Shown: piece after piece, positions 36,005-64,000 of the stretch | Layout: every line of letters starts with the position of its first letter | Position numbering within the stretch: the first letter of the stretch is position 1 | Assembly (NCBI RefSeq): GCF_037042905.1 | Contig: NC_087250.1 | Location: 17,300,001-17,364,000, forward strand | DNA: 64,000 nt | Origin: Lytechinus pictus | Taxonomy: Eukaryota | Reading direction: 5' to 3' | Notes under the pieces: generated by a model | The model's database searches: none | What the model saw: the letters and a program-made list of their open reading frames with translations, nothing else | Told to the model about the DNA's origin: nothing | Program-made: the position numbers and the translations under genes

Positions 36005-37110
36005 ATTTTATTTATTCATGTTTTATTTAACAAAAAATCGATAAAAAGAACGGTGGAGGGTAGTCCGGTTCAGTTACAAAACTGTTTTACAACGGAGCCC
36101 TCCACGAATAAAAAGAAACATAAACATGATAAATGAAAAGCAGAATACATACATAGTAAATGAATAAATTACAGAAAATGAATATAATGAAATAGATAAC
36201 ATAACACAAATCATAATTAAAATTTAAAAATGAAAACATAAACAAAAGCACAAATATAAACAAAAACCATAATTAAGTGTAGCTGCACATGGTATAGCCC
36301 CCCCCCCCCTCCCTCCCAAACTAGGCCAGGTTGTAAAGTTAGAGCTTGTTGATGAAAGTTTTGCAAAGTTTTTTTAAGTTATTTAGGGACTTAGAGTTTT
36401 GTACGGACAATGGTAATTTATTGAAAATAGAATTTGCAGTGAATGAGAATGATCTTTTTTTGTATTCAGATTTAGGGTATGGTATTTGTAGACGATTTTG
36501 GGCGGAATGTCTAGTATTATAAACAATGGGTCGTATAACAGATAATGGTTTCAAATATTTTGGTCCAGAATCATTCCAAATTTTGTAAATTAGAATACAT
36601 TGTTGGTATTTAATCCTTTGTTCAACGGATTGCCAGTCGAGTGTAGTTAACAAAGAACATTGTGAAGTTGAATAATCTGTATTCAAAACCAAGCGAGCAT
36701 ATCCATTCTGCAATTTCTGTAATCGGGTTATATTACTTTTCGAACAATTTCCCCATGCTGTACAACAATAGTCAATATATGACAATATAAGCGCTAAGTA
36801 TAACTGTTTTAATTGATTACTGTTGATTAAGTGTTTAATTCTTCTTATGCAAGCGATAGAGCGTGATATTTTACAAGAGATGTATTGTATATGCAAAGAC
36901 CAGCTTAATTGAGAGTCGAAAATAATTCCTAGGTATTTAATATTATCAACATGTTCCAAAGTTGTATTCTCAAATTTTATTGTGATTGTATTATTTTGTA
37001 ATTTACGTTTATTACCGAAAATCATGATCTTAGTCTTTTGTGGGTGTAAATACATTCGATTAATTTTGAGCCATTTGGCAATTAAGTCGTGTTCAAGATG
37101 TAACGTAATT
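36005..37110 (-). mobile_element. 5'-truncated LINE (L2/CR1/Crack group): RT C-terminus and 3' UTR
   Basis: ORF2 motifs W...N...LHPQKTKIM.F, KYLGIIFD..LSW..HI, YC...WG, LQ.LQN..AR, RSF; 3' stem-loop ggagggctcc...ggactaccctcc and aataaa tail. Confidence 0.9.
36339..37110 (-). pseudogene. Truncated LINE ORF2 (reverse transcriptase C-terminal region)
   Basis: The 238-aa ORF extends in frame upstream (LHLEHDLIAKWLKINRM); the YADD core is missing. Confidence 0.85.
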
Positions 37111-50096: not shown

Positions 50097-50202
50097 TGGC
50101 TGAGTTTCATACAGAAGTAGCCCTTACCCACCTCGAGTATTCACGCAGTTTACAGTCACTGGTAGAAACATTCAAAGAAAAAACACTTCTAGCCAAAGAG
50201 AG
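50097..50202 (+). CDS. Exon, F-BAR helix 1-2 (xAEFHTEVALTHLEYSRSLQSLVETFKEKTLLAKER), phase 1 to 2
   Basis: Acceptor tttctctttcttttag, donor ag|gtgagt; only one frame is open. Confidence 0.85.
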
Positions 50203-51220
50203 GTGAGTATACGATCCAATGCCCACTGGAATTAGTGGACATCCGTGGGTTGAAAGAAGTCTCCACGCACAGACCCAAGTTTGACATTTTAATAAAATAT
50301 ACCCTTTGATACATAAAACAAACAAGATAGAGCATCAACGCGCTCATTTGAGGCCACCGGAAACAGTTCAAAAGTACTCCATATTAAAGGTCAAGCGCGC
50401 AAAAGGTGCCTCATTTTTTTCTTCCGGGTGCATGTTGTTTCTTACGTGTTAATTGTGTCACGGAGTACATTTCCTGTACGTTGAATGTTAAGTGTGCGGC
50501 AGCATACAACAGCTATTTCATATATATCGACGATTATTCCATGTCTGGAGTGACGACTACACTCCGAGCTCTTTTAGTTAACTATATTATGCCAAATAAG
50601 ATGCAGGCATATGCATAAGTGGATATAGTCTCACTACCTCAGACTTCTGATTATTATGCATTCTGTGAAAAACAAGGGTCTGTGCCTGCAGACTATGGCA
50701 CAGGGGGCGCACGTCCTGTGTATATTTTGAAATCGACTATTGAAATTTATTTGATACTGATATGTAATATATATCACTTCAAAACGTAGGGAAATGAACT
50801 TCTCCAAAATTTAATTTTAATCCTTGAGGACCCCTCATGTATGACGTATGTGTTTTGCTTGTGAAATTTCATTATAACTATTCTCTGCTCATAGTCTTAA
50901 CATTATCGAATGGTATGATTAAACGATTATAGATTGTGATATTTTGTCTTTTTCATTTTATGCTATATACTATGATAGTCGAACACAACATTGTTCATCG
51001 TCTATCAACTTCGTAAAAATCTTAATTAAAAGATTGTGAATGTGTATGTTGCCAAGAACAATTTGGATAATTTTTACGCATGCATAGGAATTCATCAAAA
51101 TGCATGATACAATCTACTTAAAAGTGATATTACATCAGAATTTAGATTTATAGTCTACCGTACTAATTTTGAAAAAAATGTGAATTTTGCATGAGTAATT
51201 TTATTTTTTCTCTTCGACAG

Positions 51221-51290
51221 GTGGAAAGAATGTAAAAATCTCTTTACAGTTTGGGAAAATGTTCTGCAGGCGTACGGCTCGGCTGCTCAA
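51221..51290 (+). CDS. Exon (WKECKNLFTVWENVLQAYGSAAQ), phase 2 to 0
   Basis: Acceptor ttttttctcttcgacag, donor caa|gtaaat; phase matches both neighbours; F-BAR W..VL motif. Confidence 0.85.
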
Positions 51291-52314
51291 GTAAATATAT
51301 ACATTTAATGTGTTTGTAAATTGTTGCAGTTGATCTAATCAACCCAAAATTATGGCAATCAATCGCTGTCATAACCTTTCCTACAGGAAAATTACACAAT
51401 GTATTTTTTTTTACAAAGAGGGGCATACACGATGAATGTATGAACATACACATTAATAAACAGGACATTGTTTAAGCCTGTCACTCTAACAACAAGTTGT
51501 TTAAATCGTTGTAAGTGTTTAAACTTTAAAAACAACGTGTTTGTTCAATTTAAACAATAGTTTTAGAGTGACGGGCATTAACAACGTGCCTTAAATTTTA
51601 AACAGCGTTTTTAAAGTGTACATTATATCTAGAAAAGGTTTTAAACAAACATGCATTAAATAATGTTGGCCTTGCTGACTTTCCATGGTTGTGGCTGATT
51701 GGATGGACCGCAATTCTTTGTAAGACGGGGCCCTGCATGGCATGCCTGGGATCCGGTTTAAAATTACTGAAGATTATGGTATCGCTGCCAGTAGGATAAG
51801 AAAATAAACCTTGAAACGATGAGTTTGTTGAGCAGCTTAGCCTTGCTGCCATGGTAATTACCCTATTAGCATAAGGCTATCGTAATAGCCGAAGGATCGG
51901 GTTACCATGGTAATCTGGATTGGCTCCTAAGCCCTGTTACCATGGTAGTTGCCATGATGGCAAAGTTCCCTTTAGGAAATGGGCCCGGGTCACTGTGCTT
52001 CCACTTCAATAAAAAAATCAAAAATATAACAATATAGTCATGAAAACAATATAACTTTATGTAAATTGATGTACATCTATATGAAGGACGACCCTGGGAT
52101 TTTCTTAACAGTGAAGGAAAAGGAGAAGAAATGATAGAAAGAGAAAGGAGGAAGATTATTATGACGAAGAATGATCTGGTTCATGTTGCCCTATAATGCC
52201 CCAAGGCTTGTTATTTAATTCAGAAAAATGACTTGTTATAGAAGTTATGCAGAACTTGTCTTGATGACAAGAAACTATGGCCATAAATTCGCTGACCCTC
52301 TTTCATTTCTTCAG

Positions 52315-52467
52315 GACCATAGTGACCTTGGTGAGGCTATTGAGGCATCAGTCACTGACCAGTTGGTGGAATCAGCGAAAAACAAACAGCAACTTGTGAA
52401 GATGTTGGACGTGTACAGAGATGATTATATCAAACAGTCGCAATCGCTCGATGCTGTCATTGATAAG
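52315..52467 (+). CDS. Exon (DHSDLGEAIEASVTDQL...LDAVIDK), phase 0 to 0
   Basis: Acceptor tttcatttcttcag, donor aag|gtatag; helical, heptad-rich peptide. Confidence 0.9.
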
Positions 52468-52995
52468 GTATAGCATTGTACGCAGACAATGGCGGCGAAT
52501 TGTGATGTATCCCGTTCTCTGATTGTTTTATATGAATCACATGATCTGAGATATTCTTGTTTAGTTACTGGTGCTAAGGAGAGTACATGTTTGGGTGTTT
52601 TGACCTTCCCCGCAAGAGGATCTGCAAGGAAGAACGTGACAAATAATTGATTATACAACTTTTATCGCCGTTTGTAAGTTTCTGTAATTTAATGAATATA
52701 TTCTCCCAGGTGATAAATTAATGACAGTACATTTGAGATATTATTAGGCTCTTAAAATTGATATTATCACTATAGTGATCATAAAATAATACCAAAATAA
52801 TTTTTACTAGAGTTTTGTGCAGAAAAATTTGCTCTACGTTTTATTGCTATATCAAAATGGGCAAAACCAAACATTGTATACAAACGTTGGGATTTCGAAT
52901 GAACGAAACAAAATGAAATGAAATTATCATCATTAAGTAGTTATCTATTTAAATGGTTTAATTTGATTTAACTATTTATCCTTTTTCCAATACAG

Positions 52996-53058
52996 AGTGA
53001 AAAGGAATACTTTGAAAGCTGGTCGAAAATGAGCAAGGATGGGATGAACACTATAAAG
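52996..53058 (+). CDS. Exon (SEKEYFESWSKMSKDGMNTIK), phase 0 to 0
   Basis: Acceptor ctttttccaatacag, donor aag|gtatcg. Confidence 0.8.
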
Positions 53059-53738
53059 GTATCGACCGTAGAGGGCGTGATCACTCTGCTATCTAGAAAG
53101 TGTTGACTGAAATGTGACTCCAAAATAGTGTGCATACACTGAGAAATTGCATTATGGTTGAGCTAATATAATCTTACCATCGGGTAATCCGACACCTTCA
53201 TGCGTATTTTAAGAGTGTGTGATTTTTTTTTGGGATTACCTTTTTAAATGCATAATGATGATTGAATTCTGTGGAAATTAATAGCTATTATGTTATTATG
53301 TCTGATTACAATCCGTCCAATTTCTGTTTTCTTTGACCAGTATTTTCAGTTTTATTCTCCTTTTCTATTATCGCTTTACAAAGTCTGCATTACATGACCG
53401 GCGAACTGCTCGCACGTGACGTCACAAAGCAATTCTAAAATATCATATCTGTCACTAGATTGATACTTGATTCATGCCAAACCTCAAATATGTGCGTCAT
53501 CTTTTCTGCATTCACTATTACAAACTTTAGATTTTTTAATCAACTTCTTCAATATATACCTTCACTATTAATTTCGTTATTTCAATTTAATGCCTTTCTT
53601 TTATTGATAATTGTATTTTTATTTATCTTTATATAGTGTTTTTTATGTAGTTTGTTTTTCTTCTAAATGCATTTTGTATATGATTCCTAAATGCGAATGT
53701 AACTATGTTACATGCATTTTTTTTTTCATATCCTACAG

Positions 53739-53852
53739 AATCACAATACGGCGTTCTGCTACAATAGATTAAATGATTATATCCTACAAATACAGTCAGC
53801 AAATCAGTTGAATGAATCTTTATCTACCGCAGTGCTTCCAAAAGTTAATTCC
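53739..53852 (+). CDS. Exon (NHNTAFCYNRLNDYILQIQSANQLNESLSTAVLPKVNS), phase 0 to 0
   Basis: Acceptor ttttcatatcctacag, donor tcc|gtaagt; N.Y.L....AN and LP motifs typical of F-BAR helix 4. Confidence 0.9.
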
Positions 53853-54455
53853 GTAAGTGTGTTCTTTTTTCTCTCTCTCTCTCCCTTTCATTCCTTTCTA
53901 GAACATCGGCCGTTTATGATTACACAAATGTAACAATCATCGTATCTTTTCAATTAACGTTATGTCTTCATCACTTTTATTTTTATATGTTCGTACCAAA
54001 CGAACGAAAGAAGCAGTTATTAGGGTGAATGTTATCTTCATACCGTCCTGTACAATGTACTTGCTCTGTACCACTTGCTTTTCTTTTCAAATCATAGTTA
54101 AACTCTTGAATTCGAATGCTTGTATTTTGTTTTTCTTTAAACTATTTCTAAAGGGAATAAATACAAAGGATTCTATTTTCCATATTCTGAGTCCGACTTA
54201 ACTAATGCCGTGATCTAAGTTTGTGCTAACATGGGAAACCAAAAATGACAAAATTGTATTTACATCATATGTTTCCTATCTTCACTAGATACTTTCCTCA
54301 TATTTTATTGATAAAGAGAACTATTCCAGTAATTATTGCCAGTCAGATGTGAAGGAATAGACTGTCATATTAGCTTGCAAATTGAGCTGGTATATACTGT
54401 TTAGAGATGCCTGTCGAAATCGGCTATCCACAGGTCAACTATACCTTTAGACCAG

Positions 54456-54724
54456 GAGCCCGTAACACAAAACTTAGCAATTATCGAATCCATTGACTAC
54501 AATGTACAATCAATCGTGAAAATCAAGTGTACGATCAATCGCTAACCTTTGTGTTACGGGACCCACGGCTCCGTAACAGAAAGGTTTGCGATGAATTGCA
54601 AGTATGAAAGAACGGCACCGATTGGTTCCCGGTCAGTATTTTAAACAAAGTGCGCTTGCAACGACGATCTTGATTGGTCGTTGGTATTTAGCGATTGATT
54701 GCAAACCTTTGTGTTACGGAGCCC
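54456..54724. mobile_element. Two abutting Harbinger-like MITEs; related copies near 34224-34350 and 49410-49510
   Basis: cccgtaacacaaa...tttgtgttacggg, then ggctccgtaacagaaagg...cctttgtgttacggagcc. Confidence 0.75.
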
Positions 54725-54909
54725 TGAGCTTAGATTAAACCGGAGTGCAGAATACCGTCCTATGATTTTCAGACTGAAGATAACATGGCGCTTAATTTGA
54801 AGCATATTCATTTTATTAGAATGTTGTGCTTTCTTTATTGTTCTGTTCCTCAATTGCTACCACAATTTACATAAAATACTTAAAAGTATTTTCTGTTTAT
54901 CCGTTGCAG

Positions 54910-54990
54910 GACTCAGATTTAGTCCGTCATGAAATTTCAGAATCAGGAATATCTGGACTAGTATGGCATTCCAAGGTTCTTATAGCAAAG
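54910..54990 (+). CDS. Exon (DSDLVRHEISESGISGLVWHSKVLIAK), phase 0 to 0
   Basis: Acceptor ttttctgtttatccgttgcag, donor aag|gtaatt. Confidence 0.8.
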
Positions 54991-55029
54991 GTAATTAAAA
55001 ACTAAAAATAAATTGTGTACAATTTTCAG

Positions 55030-55678
55030 TCAAATCTTGAATTCAAATTTCATATGGTACACATAGGTACGTTATGGAGAGTGTGATGGTGTGTGGATGG
55101 GTGTGTGTGTTTGAGTTTGAGTATCAATCTTGAATCCAAATATCATACGTTATACATAGGTACGATATGGAGGGGGTCTGTGTGTGTTTGAGCTTCAATA
55201 ATAAAATCTTGAAACCAAATATACGTTTTACATATAGGTACGATATGGAGGGGGTCTGTGTGTGTTTGAGCTTCAATAGTAAAATCTTGAAACCAAATAT
55301 ACGTTTTACATATAGGTACGATATGGAGGGGGTCTGTGTGTGTTTGAGCTTCAATAGTAAAATCTTGAAACCAAATATACGTTTTACATATAGGTACGAT
55401 ATGGAGGGGGTCTGTGTGTGTTTGAGCTTCAATAGTAAAATCTTGAAACCAAATATACGTTTTACATATAGGTACGATATGGAGGGGGTCTGTGTGTTTG
55501 AGCTTCAATAGTAAAATCTTGAAACCAAATATACGTTTTACATATAGGTACGATATGGAGGGTGTGTGTGTGTGTTTGAGTTTAAGTAGTCAAATCTTGA
55601 ATCCAAATACCATACGTTATACATAGGTACGATATGGAGAGGGTGTGTATGAATGTGTGTGTTCGAGTTTTAGCAATC
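55030..55678. repeat. 78-bp minisatellite, about 8 copies
   Basis: ggtacgatatgg recurs at 55159, 55237, 55315, 55393, 55471, 55547 and 55626; outer copies diverged. Confidence 0.95.
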
Positions 55679-55680
55679 AG

Positions 55681-55840
55681 GGGGCTGTTTCATAAAGCTG
55701 TTCGTAAGTTAGGAGCGACTGGTGATCCTTTCTCGTATATGCGCTAAACCATCGCCAATGAATCTACCATAGACAAGAAAGGATCACCAGTCGTTCTTAA
55801 AGTCGCTCTTAACTTACGAACAGCCTTATGAGACACCCAC
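55681..55840. mobile_element. MITE family A copy
   Basis: Family A TIRs, CAG on both flanks. Confidence 0.85.
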
Positions 55841-56290
55841 CAGATATGACTATTTACGTCTGGGATCGACATTTAACGTTTCCATTCGAAAGACATGACT
55901 AGGGCTCGAACCTCTGCATCAATTTGTAATATCCCCAATGTACGTAGCTTGGAGTACAGGCGCATACTACAGCACCCAGCATGAAAGTTGTAGCTACATT
56001 ATTTCATTCATAAATTCCAGCGGCGAAAAGTGTTGCCCTTTATGAAAACTTTAGCCGCGTGACGTAACATTACATATTTAGGGGAAGTCTTTTCATCTGC
56101 CAATAATGCAATAATAATGCCATGATGCTATGAATGAAAATGATGTCGCCATAAGCATGAAAAGGGGTCAATTTTCTGATGAAATTTTCTTCAAAGGGAG
56201 CACTTATCACATACGTTCCTGACGGAACGGAGGGTCTTTAAATTGCGCATTAATTTTGTTAATGGTTTCTACTCGTTCTATTCTTGCTAG

Positions 56291-56419
56291 TTATCGGATG
56301 AGATGCGAAAGCTTGAGGTCATCTCGAAAAGATCATCATCAGAGAAACCAAAGGGGAAAGCAGAGTCCTTTGAAGCCAAGCAATACACATTCAATAAACC
56401 ACAGCCAGCAACAGGAGGG
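56291..56419 (+). CDS. Exon (LSDEMRKLEVISKR...YTFNKPQPATGG), phase 0 to 0
   Basis: Acceptor ttctattcttgctag, donor ggg|gtaaga. Confidence 0.8.
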
Positions 56420-57148
56420 GTAAGACAGTGAGCCCGTTTCATAAAACTTGTTATGATAACAGATGTGCAATAATAGTTTTAAGCTACTGAAATCATTTGA
56501 TTTCATTGGCTGAAACTTGTTCCAGAATATGTGAATTTGTTAGTATAAGTCTTAATGAAACGGGTCCATTTTTATCGGGTGTTCAAATGATGAAATCACA
56601 GTAATCATAATATATGAACAAAAAAACATACGAAATGAGTGATCAAATTACAGGTTGTGACATTAACATGATGACGAAAGACAAAGTTCGTATAGATATA
56701 CTTCTCTCGACAATGTAAAACTCTGGGTTGTTCAAACTGGCAACAGTTGCTGTTCCTTGAGGACTACACCACGAGATGTTAAATTACACCTTAAAAATTG
56801 GACGTAACACCAAAGCGTGTTAAAATAACAACCGAGGGTGTTGTAATTGAGTGTTGAACTAAAACTGTAAAGAAGAAAAAGAAGAAGAAGGGGAGGAAGA
56901 AGAATTCTAATTTTTCAAAAGAAAAGAAGCTGATAAAGGTTAAGAGAAAATGAAAAATATTAAAAAGAAGTATTTAAAAACAAACAGGAATTGGAGGAGG
57001 AGAAAGAAGCAGCATTAGAGAACGAAACAAAAATGTCAAATCAATTGCGAAGTTCCAAATAGGTCAGGATAGTCCGCCCCCCCCCCCCTCCTTCCGAAGA
57101 GAAAGGTCACTACCCTCATTTTTTTGTTATTTTTGTCTCTCATTTTAG

Positions 57149-57229
57149 GAATTTGCTCAAAATAAACTGGTGCTCAACTCAGCTACTGAAGGTAATCTCA
57201 GAGAAAAATACGACTCACTCACCAAAGAG
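57149..57229 (+). CDS. Exon (EFAQNKLVLNSATEGNLREKYDSLTKE), phase 0 to 0; start of the FX-like coil
   Basis: Acceptor tttttgtctctcattttag, donor gag|gtaagc. Confidence 0.85.
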
Positions 57230-58137
57230 GTAAGCTATCTTCCCTTTCTCTCCTTCATTAAAAAAACTCCGATGTCAATTTAACACCAATCTGTATTTAA
57301 GGACCTTAAGCTTATACGTCACCGCGTCGCCATGTTAGAGGTCAGCGCCATTGCCTTGCTGCGTAAGTGAGCCACAGCTGGTGCATATCTACTATAGCCT
57401 CTGAGGGCGATATGAGATCATGACGTCACATGCATAAGGTCCAAGCCATGAAAAACTTCCTAACAATTATGCTCTTTAATATATTTTGAAAATTTTGTAA
57501 AATGTCTGGGTCTATTGATCAGAGATAAAATCCGTTTAAGTGACATTCACATGCACTTCAAGAAAATAGCACATTGTTTAAGCCAGTCACTCTGACAACA
57601 AGCTGGTTACACTTTTGTTGTTATTGTTTACAATTTTTAAACAACTTCTTTAAAAAGTTCAAACCGTTGTTTAAACAGATTAAACAATAGTTGTTACAGT
57701 GACGGGCTTAAACGGCGTGCTTAAAATTTCTAACAGCGTTTTGACAGTGTGCAAATGGAAATTATTATTCGTCAGTACCCTACATTTTTTTTAAAACAAT
57801 GAAAAGAAAGATCTTTATGGCCAGGATACATAATAAAACGCTGTTTCGAATTTTAATACAACGTTGTTTGCTATATAAACTTTACAGTATTAGTTAAATA
57901 GTTTATACAAGTGTTTGAAATCTTAAACAACAAAGTTGATTTATATATATCGATATATATGTAAATATATTTATTAGTATTCAATGAATTAAGTATGTTT
58001 GTTTAAACTGATAAACGACTACTGTTAAGTTAAAATAGCATTGCATAAAACTATAAACAGAGTATTACATTGTAGTCATATTAGTTAAATTTAGTGAGCA
58101 CTCATATCCAAATATAATTGTTCGAAGACGCGAAGTT

Positions 58138-58322
58138 CACTCTGAAAAACGAAAAGCGACGAAGAGCTAATTTAGCTCTTAACGTATCTTATAGTGACTG
58201 CACTTCGGGTTGCTGATTTATCTCGTCCAAATTTGAAGTAGACAGCACTCCGAAGTGCAGTCACTATACACTCTCTTTAAGAGCTAAATTAGCTCTTCGT
58301 AGCTCTTCGTTTTTTTAAAGTG
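58138..58322. mobile_element. CACT-terminated palindromic element
   Basis: cactctgaaaaacgaa...gaagagctaatttagctctt and its inverse ...ttcgttttttaaagtg; TT on both flanks. Confidence 0.75.
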
Positions 58323-58356
58323 TTCGTTTTCCGGATTTTTTTTTTCTTGTTTTCAG

Positions 58357-58427
58357 ATCCAGTCACTAGAGACGGAAATAAATGTTGTCAAAGACCAGAC
58401 TAATCGGTTAAAGAGACAATATGAAAG
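58357..58427 (+). CDS. Exon (IQSLETEINVVKDQTNRLKRQYES), phase 0 to 2
   Basis: Acceptor tttttcttgttttcag, donor ag|gtaata; coiled-coil heptads. Confidence 0.85.
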
Positions 58428-58996
58428 GTAATATATTAATAACCATTGTTCATTTTTATTGATAGAAACACTTATGATTTGAAGCCATTATCTAGACCTA
58501 AACATCTGTGATTTACTTTTTCCTATGATAATTCCATTTCTCGGACCAGGATATTTTCTTTGGTTTTCATTTTAATATTTCATCAATACATAAGTGTCCC
58601 TGAATTTTAGGGCGATTCCATAAAATTATCAACCTTTTTGTACGTCCGACCTCTATTTTTCTCCATTCTTACTTCACTTCATAAACTAACCAAGTCATAT
58701 TCCTTTGAGAACATTACAGACTGTCAAAAGAACAAGAAATCAGAGACAGAAAATGTCATGAATGTCCCACATATAAGGGGTCGGACGTACATATTTTATG
58801 TAATTGCCCATTAGTGAAAAAAGTCGAGTATGCATTTTGTTTAATATTTCATTGAAAAAAAGCAGTTCTATATCAAATTAAGCAAAGGGTCCTATTGCAG
58901 GAAAGTTCCAATCGAATTGAATCCCAAAATTATTACTAATTTAATGCGAATCATTGAATCCTTTTTCTTGTTTCATTATTTTTCTCTCACTTTTAG

Positions 58997-59105
58997 CATC
59001 AAGTCCAATCAGTCCAGTAAAGCACATGAAACGTTACTTGAGATTCACAAGCTACGTAATGACAACAGGCAAAACGAGACGAACCTCGCCTGCAAAAGAG
59101 CTCAG
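58997..59105 (+). CDS. Exon (IKSNQSSKAHETLLEIHKLRNDNRQNETNLACKRAQ), phase 2 to 0
   Basis: Acceptor ttttctctcacttttag, donor cag|gtaaat. Confidence 0.85.
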
Positions 59106-59789
59106 GTAAATGTTTTTTGTCATTGTTGTATAGATACGGGCACTTAACCCCTCCCCCTCCAAAAAATTATAATAATGAATAAATAAATTTGAATAAATAA
59201 ATAAAATACAATAAAAATTAAAATAAAATTTAAAAAAATAAAAAAAAATGTTTCACGACAAAGTGAAAACAAATAAAGAAAAAGGAGGCGAGGTGAAAGA
59301 AGGAAACATAAAATGGGTGAATAATATTTGCTAATAATATATGTTATTAATACTATCATTACATTACCATTTATTTCATATTATCAATTACTATAATAGT
59401 AATATTTACTGTTATTGATCATGTATATTCAATTTTCGACTTTCATCCAGTAAAAAATATCGCATATTCGATCTGATAAATACATGTAAGTCAGAAAAAA
59501 TCTTGGAACCAGCAGAATTTGGTCCGTTCATGTATTATCGGTCAGCGACTCTACCACCAAGCCGTCACTGGTCCATGGCAAGGTCACAAGGCAATATAAT
59601 AAGAGCAGATATCTCAGTACCTCTGATTTTTAATCTGACCAGTAGTCCTAGTCGGCAATGGATGATAATAAGAAGAAGAATGATGAAAATAATAGTAATG
59701 ATCATTGGTGTCATTATTATCAATATTGTATTCCTCCCTACTTTTTTTTCGCATTAATATCCTCTTTACCATTGTATTCCTACCAACAG

Positions 59790-60003
59790 CTTTTATTGTT
59801 TTCACCCGAATGGTTTAAAACCCGTCTCAGCAATGGCCACGCTATCATGGCATCGCCGGAGAGACGAGCTTCAGAATCGGGCGATTCCATCCGAGAAATG
59901 GGGGTGTCAAGTAATGGATCGATCAACTCAAAGTCGCATGTCTTCCAGGAATATAACTTTATCAAACCAACGTTTTGTGATGATTGTAAGGGCCTGCTTA
60001 AAG
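59790..60003 (+). CDS. Exon: linker plus first half of C1 (...SHVFQEYNFIKPTFCDDCKGLLKG), phase 0 to 1
   Basis: Acceptor tgtattcctaccaacag, donor aag|gtgaga; H-x12-C-x2-C. Confidence 0.9.
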
Positions 60004-61287
60004 GTGAGATGCTAGTTTCAATAAGCTGTTCGTCATTTTGCGCACAATCATCAAATTCCGGATTCTAGGGATTTTGCTCTGAAGAGCCAAACATAACCTC
60101 AATTTTTGCCAATATCAGTTTGTTATCTTTCTTTAATGTGATCTTATTTGTTATTATTATTATCAGTATTATAAACATTGTTATTTGTTCGTACGTACAG
60201 TTTTGAAAGTCTTCCCAAAAGGCTTCCGATGTTTACTCACGTATTTACGTCACGGCACGCTCTCACGTTTTTAGTACTTTCGTAAAAACGCGTTCCCTGA
60301 TCTACGAAGTGTAGGGTCTACACTTTTGCATGCCGGTAAATCACAAAAAGTCACAGTTTTGCATATACGTGACATGAGTTTTTACGCACTTTACCCAACA
60401 GTTTTTCAAGATTATAAAAATTGCAAGCGCTTGTTTAATAGTAAGACTAATCACACACATCACAATGCACCCGCACACAGATTGCAATGTATCTGTGCAA
60501 AAAAAACATGCAAGTCCGTAAGTCTCAACCTTTAAATAAGCTGTCCTGTATTCATTTTAATTTTGCAAAGTGGTAACGCATGAAGCAGTTTAATCTCCGG
60601 TCGTAACCTGCCATTTGCATTTTGGTAAATTTTTTGCAATTTCGTAAAACTAGAGAAATTCCGGCGGTGTTCCATGGAACCCTCGTTGTTTTCAGGTTCG
60701 ATTCACAAACGTACCTGTGCCCGGCGGTCGGCCGTATACCGTGCGAGGGTGTTAGTCTGTTTTCAATGACAATATACAGTACATTGTTTTTGTTAACGTA
60801 TTACGTGATGGTTCGTATTTTGCTTGTAGCATTTCAAATAGATTATAGGACGCGTTTTGACGAAAGTACTCAAAACGTGATAGCGTGCCGTGACGTGATT
60901 ACGTGTGTAAACGTTGCAAGCCGTTTTGAAAGCAGGGCAAAGATCTAGAGTAGATATAAACATGGTTCAATGGGAATTTGAACGAGTTGTCAATTATCCT
61001 CACCAACCACATCTACATTTTTTTACTATTGAAATTATGATTATTCCATGAGTGTTCGAAGGAATAGAATTCCACAGTGTGTACACAGTGTGTATATAGT
61101 GGACCATGTGACAATGTTATATTCGCAAAAACAAAATGCTCAAAATTAACACTGCCGAGATAGTTTCAATGTAACTGAGTGCTCACACTGTGATCCTCGC
61201 CAAGAACATACTGGTAAACTGTGTCCTTTCGATCGGGATCACCAATTTATTTAGAATTATTTTCAATGCTTACGAGTGTAAGGCCAG

Positions 61288-61458
61288 GCGGGTGTTTCAT
61301 AAAGCTGTTCGTAAGTTAAGAGCGACTTTAAGAACGACTGGTGAACCTTTCTTACGCGCTTAACCGTCGCCAATGAATATACCATTTACCACAAGAAAGG
61401 ATCAACAGTCGTTCTTAAAGTTGCTCTTGACTTACGAACAGCTTTATGAAACACCCAC
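61288..61458. mobile_element. MITE family A copy
   Basis: Family A TIRs, CAG TSD. Confidence 0.85.
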
Positions 61459-61556
61459 CAGAATAATGATATCGCCCATTGGAAGCACACAGAGACGCTA
61501 GGCAACAACTAAGCAAGAATTTCATTTTATTATCATTGTTATTATTATTTCTTCAG

Positions 61557-61651
61557 GTATAATGAGACAAGGTCTGAGATGCAAAGTATGTAAAGCCAAC
61601 GTTCACCATCGCTGTATGGAATCTGTGTCATCATGCTCCGGTCCAGCATCA
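61557..61651 (+). CDS. Exon: second half of C1 (IMRQGLRCKVCKANVHHRCMESVSSCSGPAS), phase 1 to 0
   Basis: Acceptor attatttcttcag, donor tca|gtaaat; C-x2-C-x4-H-x2-C-x6-C completes the C1 domain. Confidence 0.9.
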
Positions 61652-62158
61652 GTAAATATATCTTTTCTCTACATTTTAAATGGTAGAATGATACATTGGC
61701 GGATCCAGGGGTACGACCCCCACCCTCCGTCCGGACCAAATCCGTATTACTTTTTTCGACTTGGTTATCTTTTCATATTTTTTACCAGTCTGGAAAATGC
61801 GCCAGTAAGAGAAAATGGCTTTCTTCGTTTTTATTTGTATTGCTTGGTAATATGTTTAATTTCTGAAAACTCAACTCTTTAATTTTGTAATTCCTGGATC
61901 CGTCACTGACAGCTAATAAAATATGTATAAACATGTTTTTAATTATGTATATGCATGGCGTGTGCCATGGTCATCATTATGATATGAAAAGTTTTCTAGT
62001 TCTGACCAAAAACTTCTCGATGCAAGGAATTTCCCGTTTTTATCATGTTTTAGTTTTTAGATTGTTTCCAAATGATGTTTACACAATGTACAGGTTCGAT
62101 TCAGTTCTCATTAATAGACCCATTTCATGATGAAATGAAAATAAAATAAACAGATCAG

Positions 62159-62304
62159 GGGCCCATTGCAGAAAGAGTTGCAATCAAACGCATCTCTAAA
62201 AAATCATGCGCAACTTCATTTTCAACCAATCACCAGCGCGCATTTTGGACTTGCGATTGATTTTTTGACTTGCGTTTAAACGCAACTCTTTCTGCAACGG
62301 GCCT
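62159..62304. mobile_element. Harbinger-like MITE; related copies near 260-424 and 14458-14570
   Basis: cag|gggcccattgcagaaagagttgc...gcaactctttctgcaacgggcct|cag. Confidence 0.8.
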
Positions 62305-62549
62305 CAGTAGACACTTTGTTGTTGTATAATTTTGTTTGAATCGATATCATCAGGGAATCTAAAAATAAATATGACTACATCATATCTATACAGTTGAATT
62401 ATTAATGGAAACGTTTTTTTTTATAGATAATTTATTCTTATTCGTTCTTGTTTACCCAAAGAACAATCATCACAGCCTGTTTCATTTTGTTTTCCGTTTG
62501 GTCAGTATACCTTTGAAACCTTCATTTTATAATCTCTATCATATTTCAG

Positions 62550-62606
62550 TTTGATAATCCACGGAGGGTTTCTCGGCGGTTTAGCTTCCGCGATCCCGGT
62601 TATTGG
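62550..62606 (+). CDS. Probable next exon (FDNPRRVSRRFSFRDP[GYW]); donor after 62598 or 62606
   Basis: Acceptor ctctatcatatttcag; phase-0 frame open; GC-richer than flanks; donor ambiguous. Confidence 0.5.
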
Positions 62607-63448: not shown

Positions 63449-64000
63449 TAGAGCCCCCATCATCTCGTCTGGCCTGGCCTGACATGCCCCACTCAGCCCT
63501 GGTGGTCGGTCGAGTTCCTGGGCTCCGCAGCTTGCGATATCTCTTCCACTCGGCCTCGGCCTCCGCAGACTGTGTTGCCCCTTGATGAGTAGCCCCCTGA
63601 TCAGAGAGATGTGGCTTCAACGAATTAGTGGACGAGATCGAGCCCCCAATAATGACATGAGTTTTGACGAATCATGTCGGTGGAGAACCGGCGGCAGCTG
63701 GGGTCGTTATCTCGTCACCGACGTAGTCCCTCAGTTCTAACTTTGACTGCCTATAGTAACATCCGTAGTCTATTCTAGCTTAGGTGGTTCTCCACCGACA
63801 TGATTCGTCAAAACTCATGTCATTATTGGGGGCTCGATCTCGTCCACTAATTCGTTGAAGCCACATCTCTCTGATCTGGGGACTACTCATCAAGGGGCAA
63901 CACAGTCTGTGGAGGCCGAGGCCGAGTAGAAGAGACATCGCAAGCTGCGGAGGCCAGGAAGTGGACCGACCACCAGGGCCGAGTGGGGCATGTCAGGCCA
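63449..64000. mobile_element. GC-rich foldback element, truncated by the window end
   Basis: 63475-63689 is the near-perfect inverse of 63786-64000; spacer of about 96 bp. Confidence 0.85.

Follow-up and report, generated by a model that had tools for sequence, protein, structure and literature searches.

A Lytechinus pictus locus encoding the N-terminal half of a long, invertebrate-type STAC with a predicted F-BAR and FX-like module

Vertebrate STAC1, STAC2 and STAC3 combine a C1 domain, a U-motif and an abutting pair of SH3 domains. Trp284 (W284) of STAC3 is described as central in binding the II-III loop of CaV1.1 (PMC8258685). Drosophila Dstac, which in muscle controls the L-type channel Dmca1D, and other invertebrate STACs carry in addition a putative BAR domain, its function unknown, which is missing from vertebrate STACs (PMC7573238). 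Here we analysed 64,000 nucleotides of forward-strand DNA from the sea urchin Lytechinus pictus (NCBI RefSeq assembly GCF_037042905.1, contig NC_087250.1, positions 17,300,001 to 17,364,000; hereafter, the window), for which a first-pass annotation made from the letters alone had proposed a spliced gene joining a Fes/Fer-type F-BAR and FX module to a STAC-like C1 domain. Judged by sequence comparison with its orthologues, the gene is a long, invertebrate-type STAC, and the window encodes its N-terminal half.

The architecture of BAR-bearing invertebrate STACs is already published, and the annotation's statement that a fly Stac-like protein is reported to have a putative BAR domain, set against vertebrate STACs without one, agrees with that account (PMC7573238). 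The urchin gene is an ordinary orthologue and a new member of a known family. What our analysis adds is a type for the BAR module, predicted to be an F-BAR followed by an FX-like hairpin packed as in FES. The available text of PMC7573238 does not type the Dstac BAR domain as F-BAR plus FX. A literature search, which left most subscription journals and the primary Dstac papers outside its reach, found no paper typing the STAC BAR domain as a Fes/Fer-like F-BAR plus FX, or tying STAC to Bzz1 or to choanoflagellates.

The exon chain and the identity of the gene

Twelve exons bounded by AG and GT, spanning 50097-61651 on the forward strand, join in frame with zero stops into a peptide of 428 residues (429 counting the split first codon), in line with the 12 phase-matched exons and roughly 429 residues first proposed. 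The exons, together with one unsupported candidate, are as follows.

50097..50202, forward strand: coding exon 1 (numbered within the window), residues 1-35; the modelled F-BAR begins
51221..51290, forward strand: coding exon 2, residues 35-58; F-BAR, carries the family-conserved Trp
52315..52467, forward strand: coding exon 3, residues 59-109; F-BAR, carries Met88, the start of the public Lytechinus models
52996..53058, forward strand: coding exon 4, residues 110-130; F-BAR
53739..53852, forward strand: coding exon 5, residues 131-168; F-BAR, carries 3 columns invariant in a 67-sequence alignment
54910..54990, forward strand: coding exon 6, residues 169-195; F-BAR, predicted dimer-interface helix
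56291..56419, forward strand: coding exon 7, residues 196-238; F-BAR ends at ~56341, then an extended linker
57149..57229, forward strand: coding exon 8, residues 239-265; an FX/HR1-like helical hairpin begins at ~57188
58357..58427, forward strand: coding exon 9, residues 266-289; hairpin helix 1
58997..59105, forward strand: coding exon 10, residues 289-325; hairpin helix 2
59790..60003, forward strand: coding exon 11, residues 326-397; linker, then the start of the C1 zinc finger (first half, from 59937)
61557..61651, forward strand: coding exon 12, residues 397-428; second half of C1 (to ~61639)
62550..62606, forward strand: unsupported candidate cassette exon, 57 nucleotides, 19 residues, phase 0-0, AG..GT with a weak donor, in frame

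Residues 88-428 of the joined peptide are identical to the public L. pictus protein LOC129263744 (P0007) at 341 of 341 positions, and no gaps are needed to align the peptide with S. purpuratus P0001, where 79 of 87 residues are identical before Met88 and 302 of 341 after it. Because of this gapless alignment and complete identity, the exon chain is not a product of chance; two independent public gene models use the same splice junctions, as models rather than reads. Exon 3 as a query retrieved 9 sea-urchin proteins, referred to below as the close homologues. Taken singly, none of exons 1-10 gave a Pfam match at E ≤ 1 (0/10); Pfam C1_1 was detected in both halves of the C1 domain, split over exons 11 and 12.

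The public models of L. pictus and L. variegatus begin at Met88 (window position 52402, exon 3) and omit at least 87 conserved coding residues. Identity to S. purpuratus is 91% upstream of Met88 and 89% downstream, as expected of translated sequence. Since conservation upstream equals that downstream, we read exons 1 and 2 as coding, and the Met88 start of the public Lytechinus models is likely an annotation truncation. A scan of all upstream GT donors in the window revealed no convincing first coding exon, and limited checks of positions 1-50096 recognised no other protein-coding gene, as would fit a long first intron in the STAC gene.

At the other end, exons for the U-motif and the SH3 domains were not found before base 64000. 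Past C1, some homologues have an optional 22-residue segment and others go straight into the linker; neither the segment nor the linker turned up before the same base. The gene had been drawn to position 62606. Its extent to 61651 stands, whereas 62550-62606 is a thirteenth candidate exon lacking homologue support: its peptide matches nothing in any homologue or public isoform compared. Its GC content is 0.53 against 0.32 in the flanks and relatives have optional segments at this site; it is possibly an unannotated cassette exon, or else a chance frame.

The evidence for the U-motif and the SH3 domains comes from the matching public protein and its orthologues. All five urchin proteins scanned run from C1 through a disordered linker into two SH3 domains, and such a C-terminal pair ends all 9 close homologues; in P0007, Pfam C1_1 scores 56.4 bits (cut-off 26.5). 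The best SH3 matches of the pair in the PDB are the tandem SH3 domains of STAC3, STAC1 and STAC2 (E 4e-20 to 4e-15). The P0007 pair aligns to STAC3 (6UY7) with a single gap (E 4e-20), its two domains abut with a period of 61 residues, and the Trp equivalent to W284 is retained in the urchin SH3 alignment. Among the matches listed for 49 long relatives, C1 is present in at least 36, SH3 in at least 29 and both in at least 23; kinase, SH2 and RhoGAP domains are found in none of the 49, and no kinase motif was seen in 115 proteins. The choice left by the first-pass annotation, SH3 versus RhoGAP or kinase downstream, thus falls to SH3 in the orthologues.

Using the stac2 U-motif given in PMC6156082 as a reference, we located a match at position 373 of P0007 that shares 7 of 15 residues with the core; of the 9 critical residues, 5 are identical and 2 conservative. 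This score was reached by 0 of 1000 shuffles in all eight echinoderm and both hemichordate proteins. Spiralian and tardigrade members gave p values of 0.001-0.003 (6/6) and amphioxus 0.033; with 36 proteins tested, values of ~0.01-0.05 are weak. The urchin U-motif is much nearer the vertebrate version than are those of Drosophila Dstac and insect Stacl. Among 13 coral, sponge, ctenophore, choanoflagellate and unnamed members, a U-motif followed C1 in one unnamed protein only. Pfam STAC2_u1 matches the linker of echinoderm P0013 (E 4.6e-4). Because the orthologues carry a U-motif and an abutting STAC-type SH3 pair, without kinase or RhoGAP, we assign the gene to the STAC family, as had been suspected from the N-terminal half. 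A U-motif match in Bolinopsis (p 0.005) was rejected, as it falls inside the F-BAR.

A predicted F-BAR and FX-like module followed by a C1 domain

An AlphaFold2 model of P0001 residues 36-377, built on the 67-sequence alignment (predicted local distance difference test, pLDDT, 95), has three long helices followed, after an extended linker, by a hairpin of two helices. In a comparison with 48,161 chains, F-BAR structures filled all of the top 14 rows (Z 13.1-16.3). FES superposed over 319 residues with a root-mean-square deviation (rmsd) of 3.3 Å (Z 16.3, 12% structural identity). The F-BARx of srGAP2 aligned over 322 residues with an rmsd of 9.0 (Z 15.0), and the rest of the top 14 over the F-BAR part only; the GMIP F-BAR scored Z 14.9 over 221 residues. 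On repeat superposition, FES covered up to 322 residues at an rmsd of 3.3-3.4, while srGAP2 was equal on Z but with an rmsd of ~9-11, a poor fit of the whole module. The Atlas model matched Fer clusters with template-modelling (TM) scores of 0.86 (over 339) and 0.79, and FCHSD1 with 0.59.

Profile comparisons were divided. A 39-sequence profile of members without full C1 or SH3 had FES as its sole significant PDB match (E 5e-8), and a 4-sequence echinoderm profile had no significant PDB match. The 67-sequence profile placed srGAP2 (67.6 bits, E 7.5e-18) over FES (59.6 bits, E 2e-15). Foldseek E-values also put srGAP2 first, and hhalign against a wasp srGAP gave a probability of 91%. We therefore describe the module as predicted to be one of the extended F-BARs, in shape nearest FES over 319 residues. 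A Fes/Fer-type F-BAR plus FX, as originally proposed, is borne out by the model as the best reading but not the sole one, with srGAP2 tying or leading on some scores. The likeness to Fes and Fer ends there, as STAC orthologues have neither SH2 nor tyrosine kinase; nor do they have the RhoGAP that follows the F-BARx in srGAPs.

When two copies were modelled together, the prediction was an antiparallel homodimer with a score of 0.64, compared with 0.00 for the best of three controls. Runs shared at least 56% of contacts, with a partner pLDDT of at least 67. Of 29 solved homodimers from eukaryotes, 17 pass the mark used for dimers (among animals, 7 of 16), and 0 of 30 single chains do; since F-BAR dimers have already been solved, the pass may come from the predictor's memory. 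Of the family-conserved basic columns, the window peptide keeps 10 of 14 in the F-BAR; for the hairpin the count is 5 of 7. In the echinoderm proteins P0001 and P0011-P0014, a Ser/Arg-rich tail seemingly replaces the first F-BAR helix, a helix that coral, insect and spiralian members retain.

The C1 domain encoded in the window has complete zinc ligands. It had been described as resembling vertebrate STAC C1 domains, and this was not upheld: in the PDB ranking PKCdelta C1B is closest (61.6 bits), with STAC3 C1 20th of 32 (39.9 bits). The C1 by itself is thus not diagnostic of STAC. The domain retains Thr12, Leu21 and Gly23, residues that in PKCdelta form the lining of the phorbol groove, as well as Pro11 and Gln27; the groove of STAC3 C1, by contrast, is occluded. 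The urchin domain differs from arthropod members, which have Ile/His where it has Pro11 and a hydrophobic position 24. Position 22 is Lys, and a basic residue there is associated with lost diacylglycerol (DAG) binding. Lys or Arg is usual at this position in the bilaterian members shown, and occurs in the coral and two sponge members. In PKC, Trp or Tyr at position 22 sets DAG affinity (PMC4756072). Because of the Lys, DAG sensing by the urchin C1 appears doubtful, and docking to proteins or anionic surfaces is the more likely role over high-affinity DAG sensing.

Distribution and proposed function

A search of 1.84 billion proteins with the N-terminal profile yielded 105 representatives, including a mosquito cluster named Stacl. 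Of these clusters 30 were looked up and 25 named an organism: echinoderms, a hemichordate, amphioxus, insects, mites, an ostracod, a tardigrade, spiralians, corals, sponges, a ctenophore and three choanoflagellates. Vertebrate or fungal members were absent from these 25. Wherever both SH3 motifs were detected, from choanoflagellates to urchins, the pair abuts with a period of 58-62 residues. Outside bilaterians the second SH3 is of canonical type; in the urchin it is degenerate, as in vertebrate STACs.

The choanoflagellate Salpingoeca protein P0097 (model pLDDT 80) matched FES over 345 residues with an rmsd of 3.0-3.1. Its SH3 pair superposed on that of STAC1 over 114 of 115 residues (rmsd 3.3, Z 14.2), compared with 12-22 for other tandem SH3 structures; the alignment behind this model contained bilaterian members and may have biased it. 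By sequence, STAC was not among 20 PDB matches to the choanoflagellate SH3 pair at E ≤ 1e-8; for the sponge and coral pairs STAC was listed, but after GRB2. A FastTree of 75 N-terminal regions gave echinoderms a support of 1.0, with clades broadly following lineages. This tree, which left out near-duplicate urchin isoforms and matches spanning fewer than 190 profile positions and was rooted on one wasp srGAP, cannot place long STACs among F-BAR families. The suggestion that the gene keeps an ancestral F-BAR-C1-SH3 architecture is supported: the long-STAC layout is old, and it recurs in groups ranging from arthropods to sponges, a ctenophore and the choanoflagellate members.

In six members, from a nemertean (P0019), a brachiopod (P0023), an oyster (P0045, named 'nostrin'), a flatworm (P0056), a bryozoan (P0065) and a tardigrade (P0064), the U-motif is kept and no C1 was seen. 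The missing C1 may reflect lineage loss or isoform choice.

Together, these comparisons suggest that a protein on which excitation-contraction coupling in vertebrate muscle depends arose before animals and lost domains step by step. A fuller scenario is offered only tentatively. An F-BAR-FX-C1-SH3-SH3 STAC would predate animals, share its F-BAR-FX with Fes/Fer and perhaps have its origin in an opisthokont gene resembling Bzz1. In bilaterians, the U-motif would have been gained and the second SH3 remodelled for L-type channels; vertebrates would later have lost F-BAR-FX and spiralians C1. On curved membrane, long STACs would gather channels into pairs. If so, the STAC3 of excitation-contraction coupling would be the cut-down tail of a membrane-shaping dimer.

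We propose, with a probability of about 0.62, that the sea-urchin STAC works at membranes as a dimeric adaptor, holding L-type calcium channels and tuning them. By analogy with F-BAR and Fer biology, the basic face of the F-BAR dimer and the hairpin would bind acidic lipids; the FX of Fer binds phosphatidic acid (PMC4021885). The first SH3 would engage the proline-rich CaV1 II-III loop through its conserved Trp, as extrapolated from vertebrate STACs and fly Dstac, and the U-motif, if it acts as in vertebrate STACs, would damp Ca/calmodulin-dependent inactivation of L-type channels. Each dimer would thereby present two channel-binding tails at a single membrane site. The urchin protein offers a deuterostome example that combines vertebrate-like channel-regulating motifs with the old N-terminal module, and recasts what was a putative BAR domain without an assigned function as a specific claim open to test, that of a FES-type F-BAR plus FX dimer.

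Several observations weigh against this proposal. An F-BAR had been expected to show itself through an FCH profile or a structural match; the structural match was found, but Pfam FCH in P0001 reaches 21.5 bits, under the cut-off of 27.8. Among the matches listed for the 49 long relatives, FCH is seen at E ≤ 0.001 in at least 18 and exceeds the cut-off in at least 4. The modelled F-BAR region is net acidic (33 acidic versus 26 basic residues), echinoderm N-termini seem to be without the first F-BAR helix, the model aligning from FES residue 24, and a start at Met88, as in the public Lytechinus models, would cut ~90 residues off the F-BAR. Arthropod members score weakly for the U-motif (p 0.013-0.79 in the 6 tested). 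Knockdown of Dstac gave no obvious T-tubule defect according to the available text of PMC7573238, although only 3 of 13 BAR-containing transcripts were targeted.

The Met88 start of the public models, the seemingly missing helix, the acidic charge and the Lys at C1 position 22 are also what would be expected if the F-BAR and FX were merely a dimerisation or autoinhibitory scaffold, or if the main product began at Met88 without a working F-BAR, so that the protein acted as a short vertebrate STAC. We consider this quite improbable, as the 87 residues before Met88 are conserved to the degree expected of translated sequence and the window peptide retains the conserved basic columns. A GMIP-, ARHGAP29- or ARHGAP45-type F-BAR-C1-RhoGAP, or a Fes/Fer kinase, is hardly credible: the GMIP F-BAR fits the fold, and FES and Fer are the closest F-BAR plus FX shapes, but the close homologues end in two SH3 domains, and the RhoGAP that follows C1 in the ARHGAP group is absent from STAC orthologues, as are SH2 and kinase.

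Fungal Bzz1 and Ascochyta ArF-BAR share with long STACs the order F-BAR, C1, SH3, SH3, and ArF-BAR (F-BAR 7-253, C1 407-459) tubulates liposomes (PMC8158962). The urchin protein could likewise be an endocytic or actin adaptor in the manner of Bzz1 or CIP4/TOCA, its F-BAR tubulating membrane and its SH3 pair recruiting WASP- or dynamin-type partners, with a channel role secondary or absent. The nearest Atlas clusters of P0097, an arthropod cluster and fungal BZZ1, are tied at a feature score of 0.93, and HR1_TOCA matches the hairpin in at least 5 of the 49 long relatives, at least 4 above cut-off. These HR1_TOCA matches, among those listed, are nevertheless limited to coral, ctenophore and choanoflagellate-grade members and do not include echinoderms. 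The two SH3 domains of ArF-BAR lie ~54 residues apart (PMC8158962), whereas those of long STACs abut, and the urchin protein has a U-motif and a degenerate second SH3, as do vertebrate STACs. We regard an endocytic adaptor as unlikely for the urchin protein and favour the channel-holding dimer.

Other features of the window and of public models

Pfam returned nothing useful for seven other open frames of the window. A 256-residue open frame at 36339-37109 on the reverse strand bears, by eye, a likeness to the end of a long interspersed nuclear element (LINE) reverse transcriptase; Pfam returned only DUF3463 (E 0.005). Among public proteins, precomputed Pfam PF26085 is assigned to P0002, P0003, P0010 and P0011 and is absent from local Pfam scans of P0002 and P0003. 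The public model of Diadema antillarum P0010 fuses the second half of the STAC gene to an unrelated N-terminus bearing a Death domain, and is probably a gene-model fusion.

The introns and the distal end of the window contain repeats. An intronic tandem array at 55102-55648 comprises 7 copies of a 78-bp unit with 93% matches. Two related short elements resembling miniature inverted-repeat transposable elements (MITEs), with inverted ends, lie in different introns at 55676-55845 and 61287-61462. Inverted arms of 215 nucleotides at 63475-63689 and 63786-64000, 96% complementary and reaching the window end, are likely a foldback or MITE-type element, and additional inverted pairs occur at 60211-60932 and 62160-62303.

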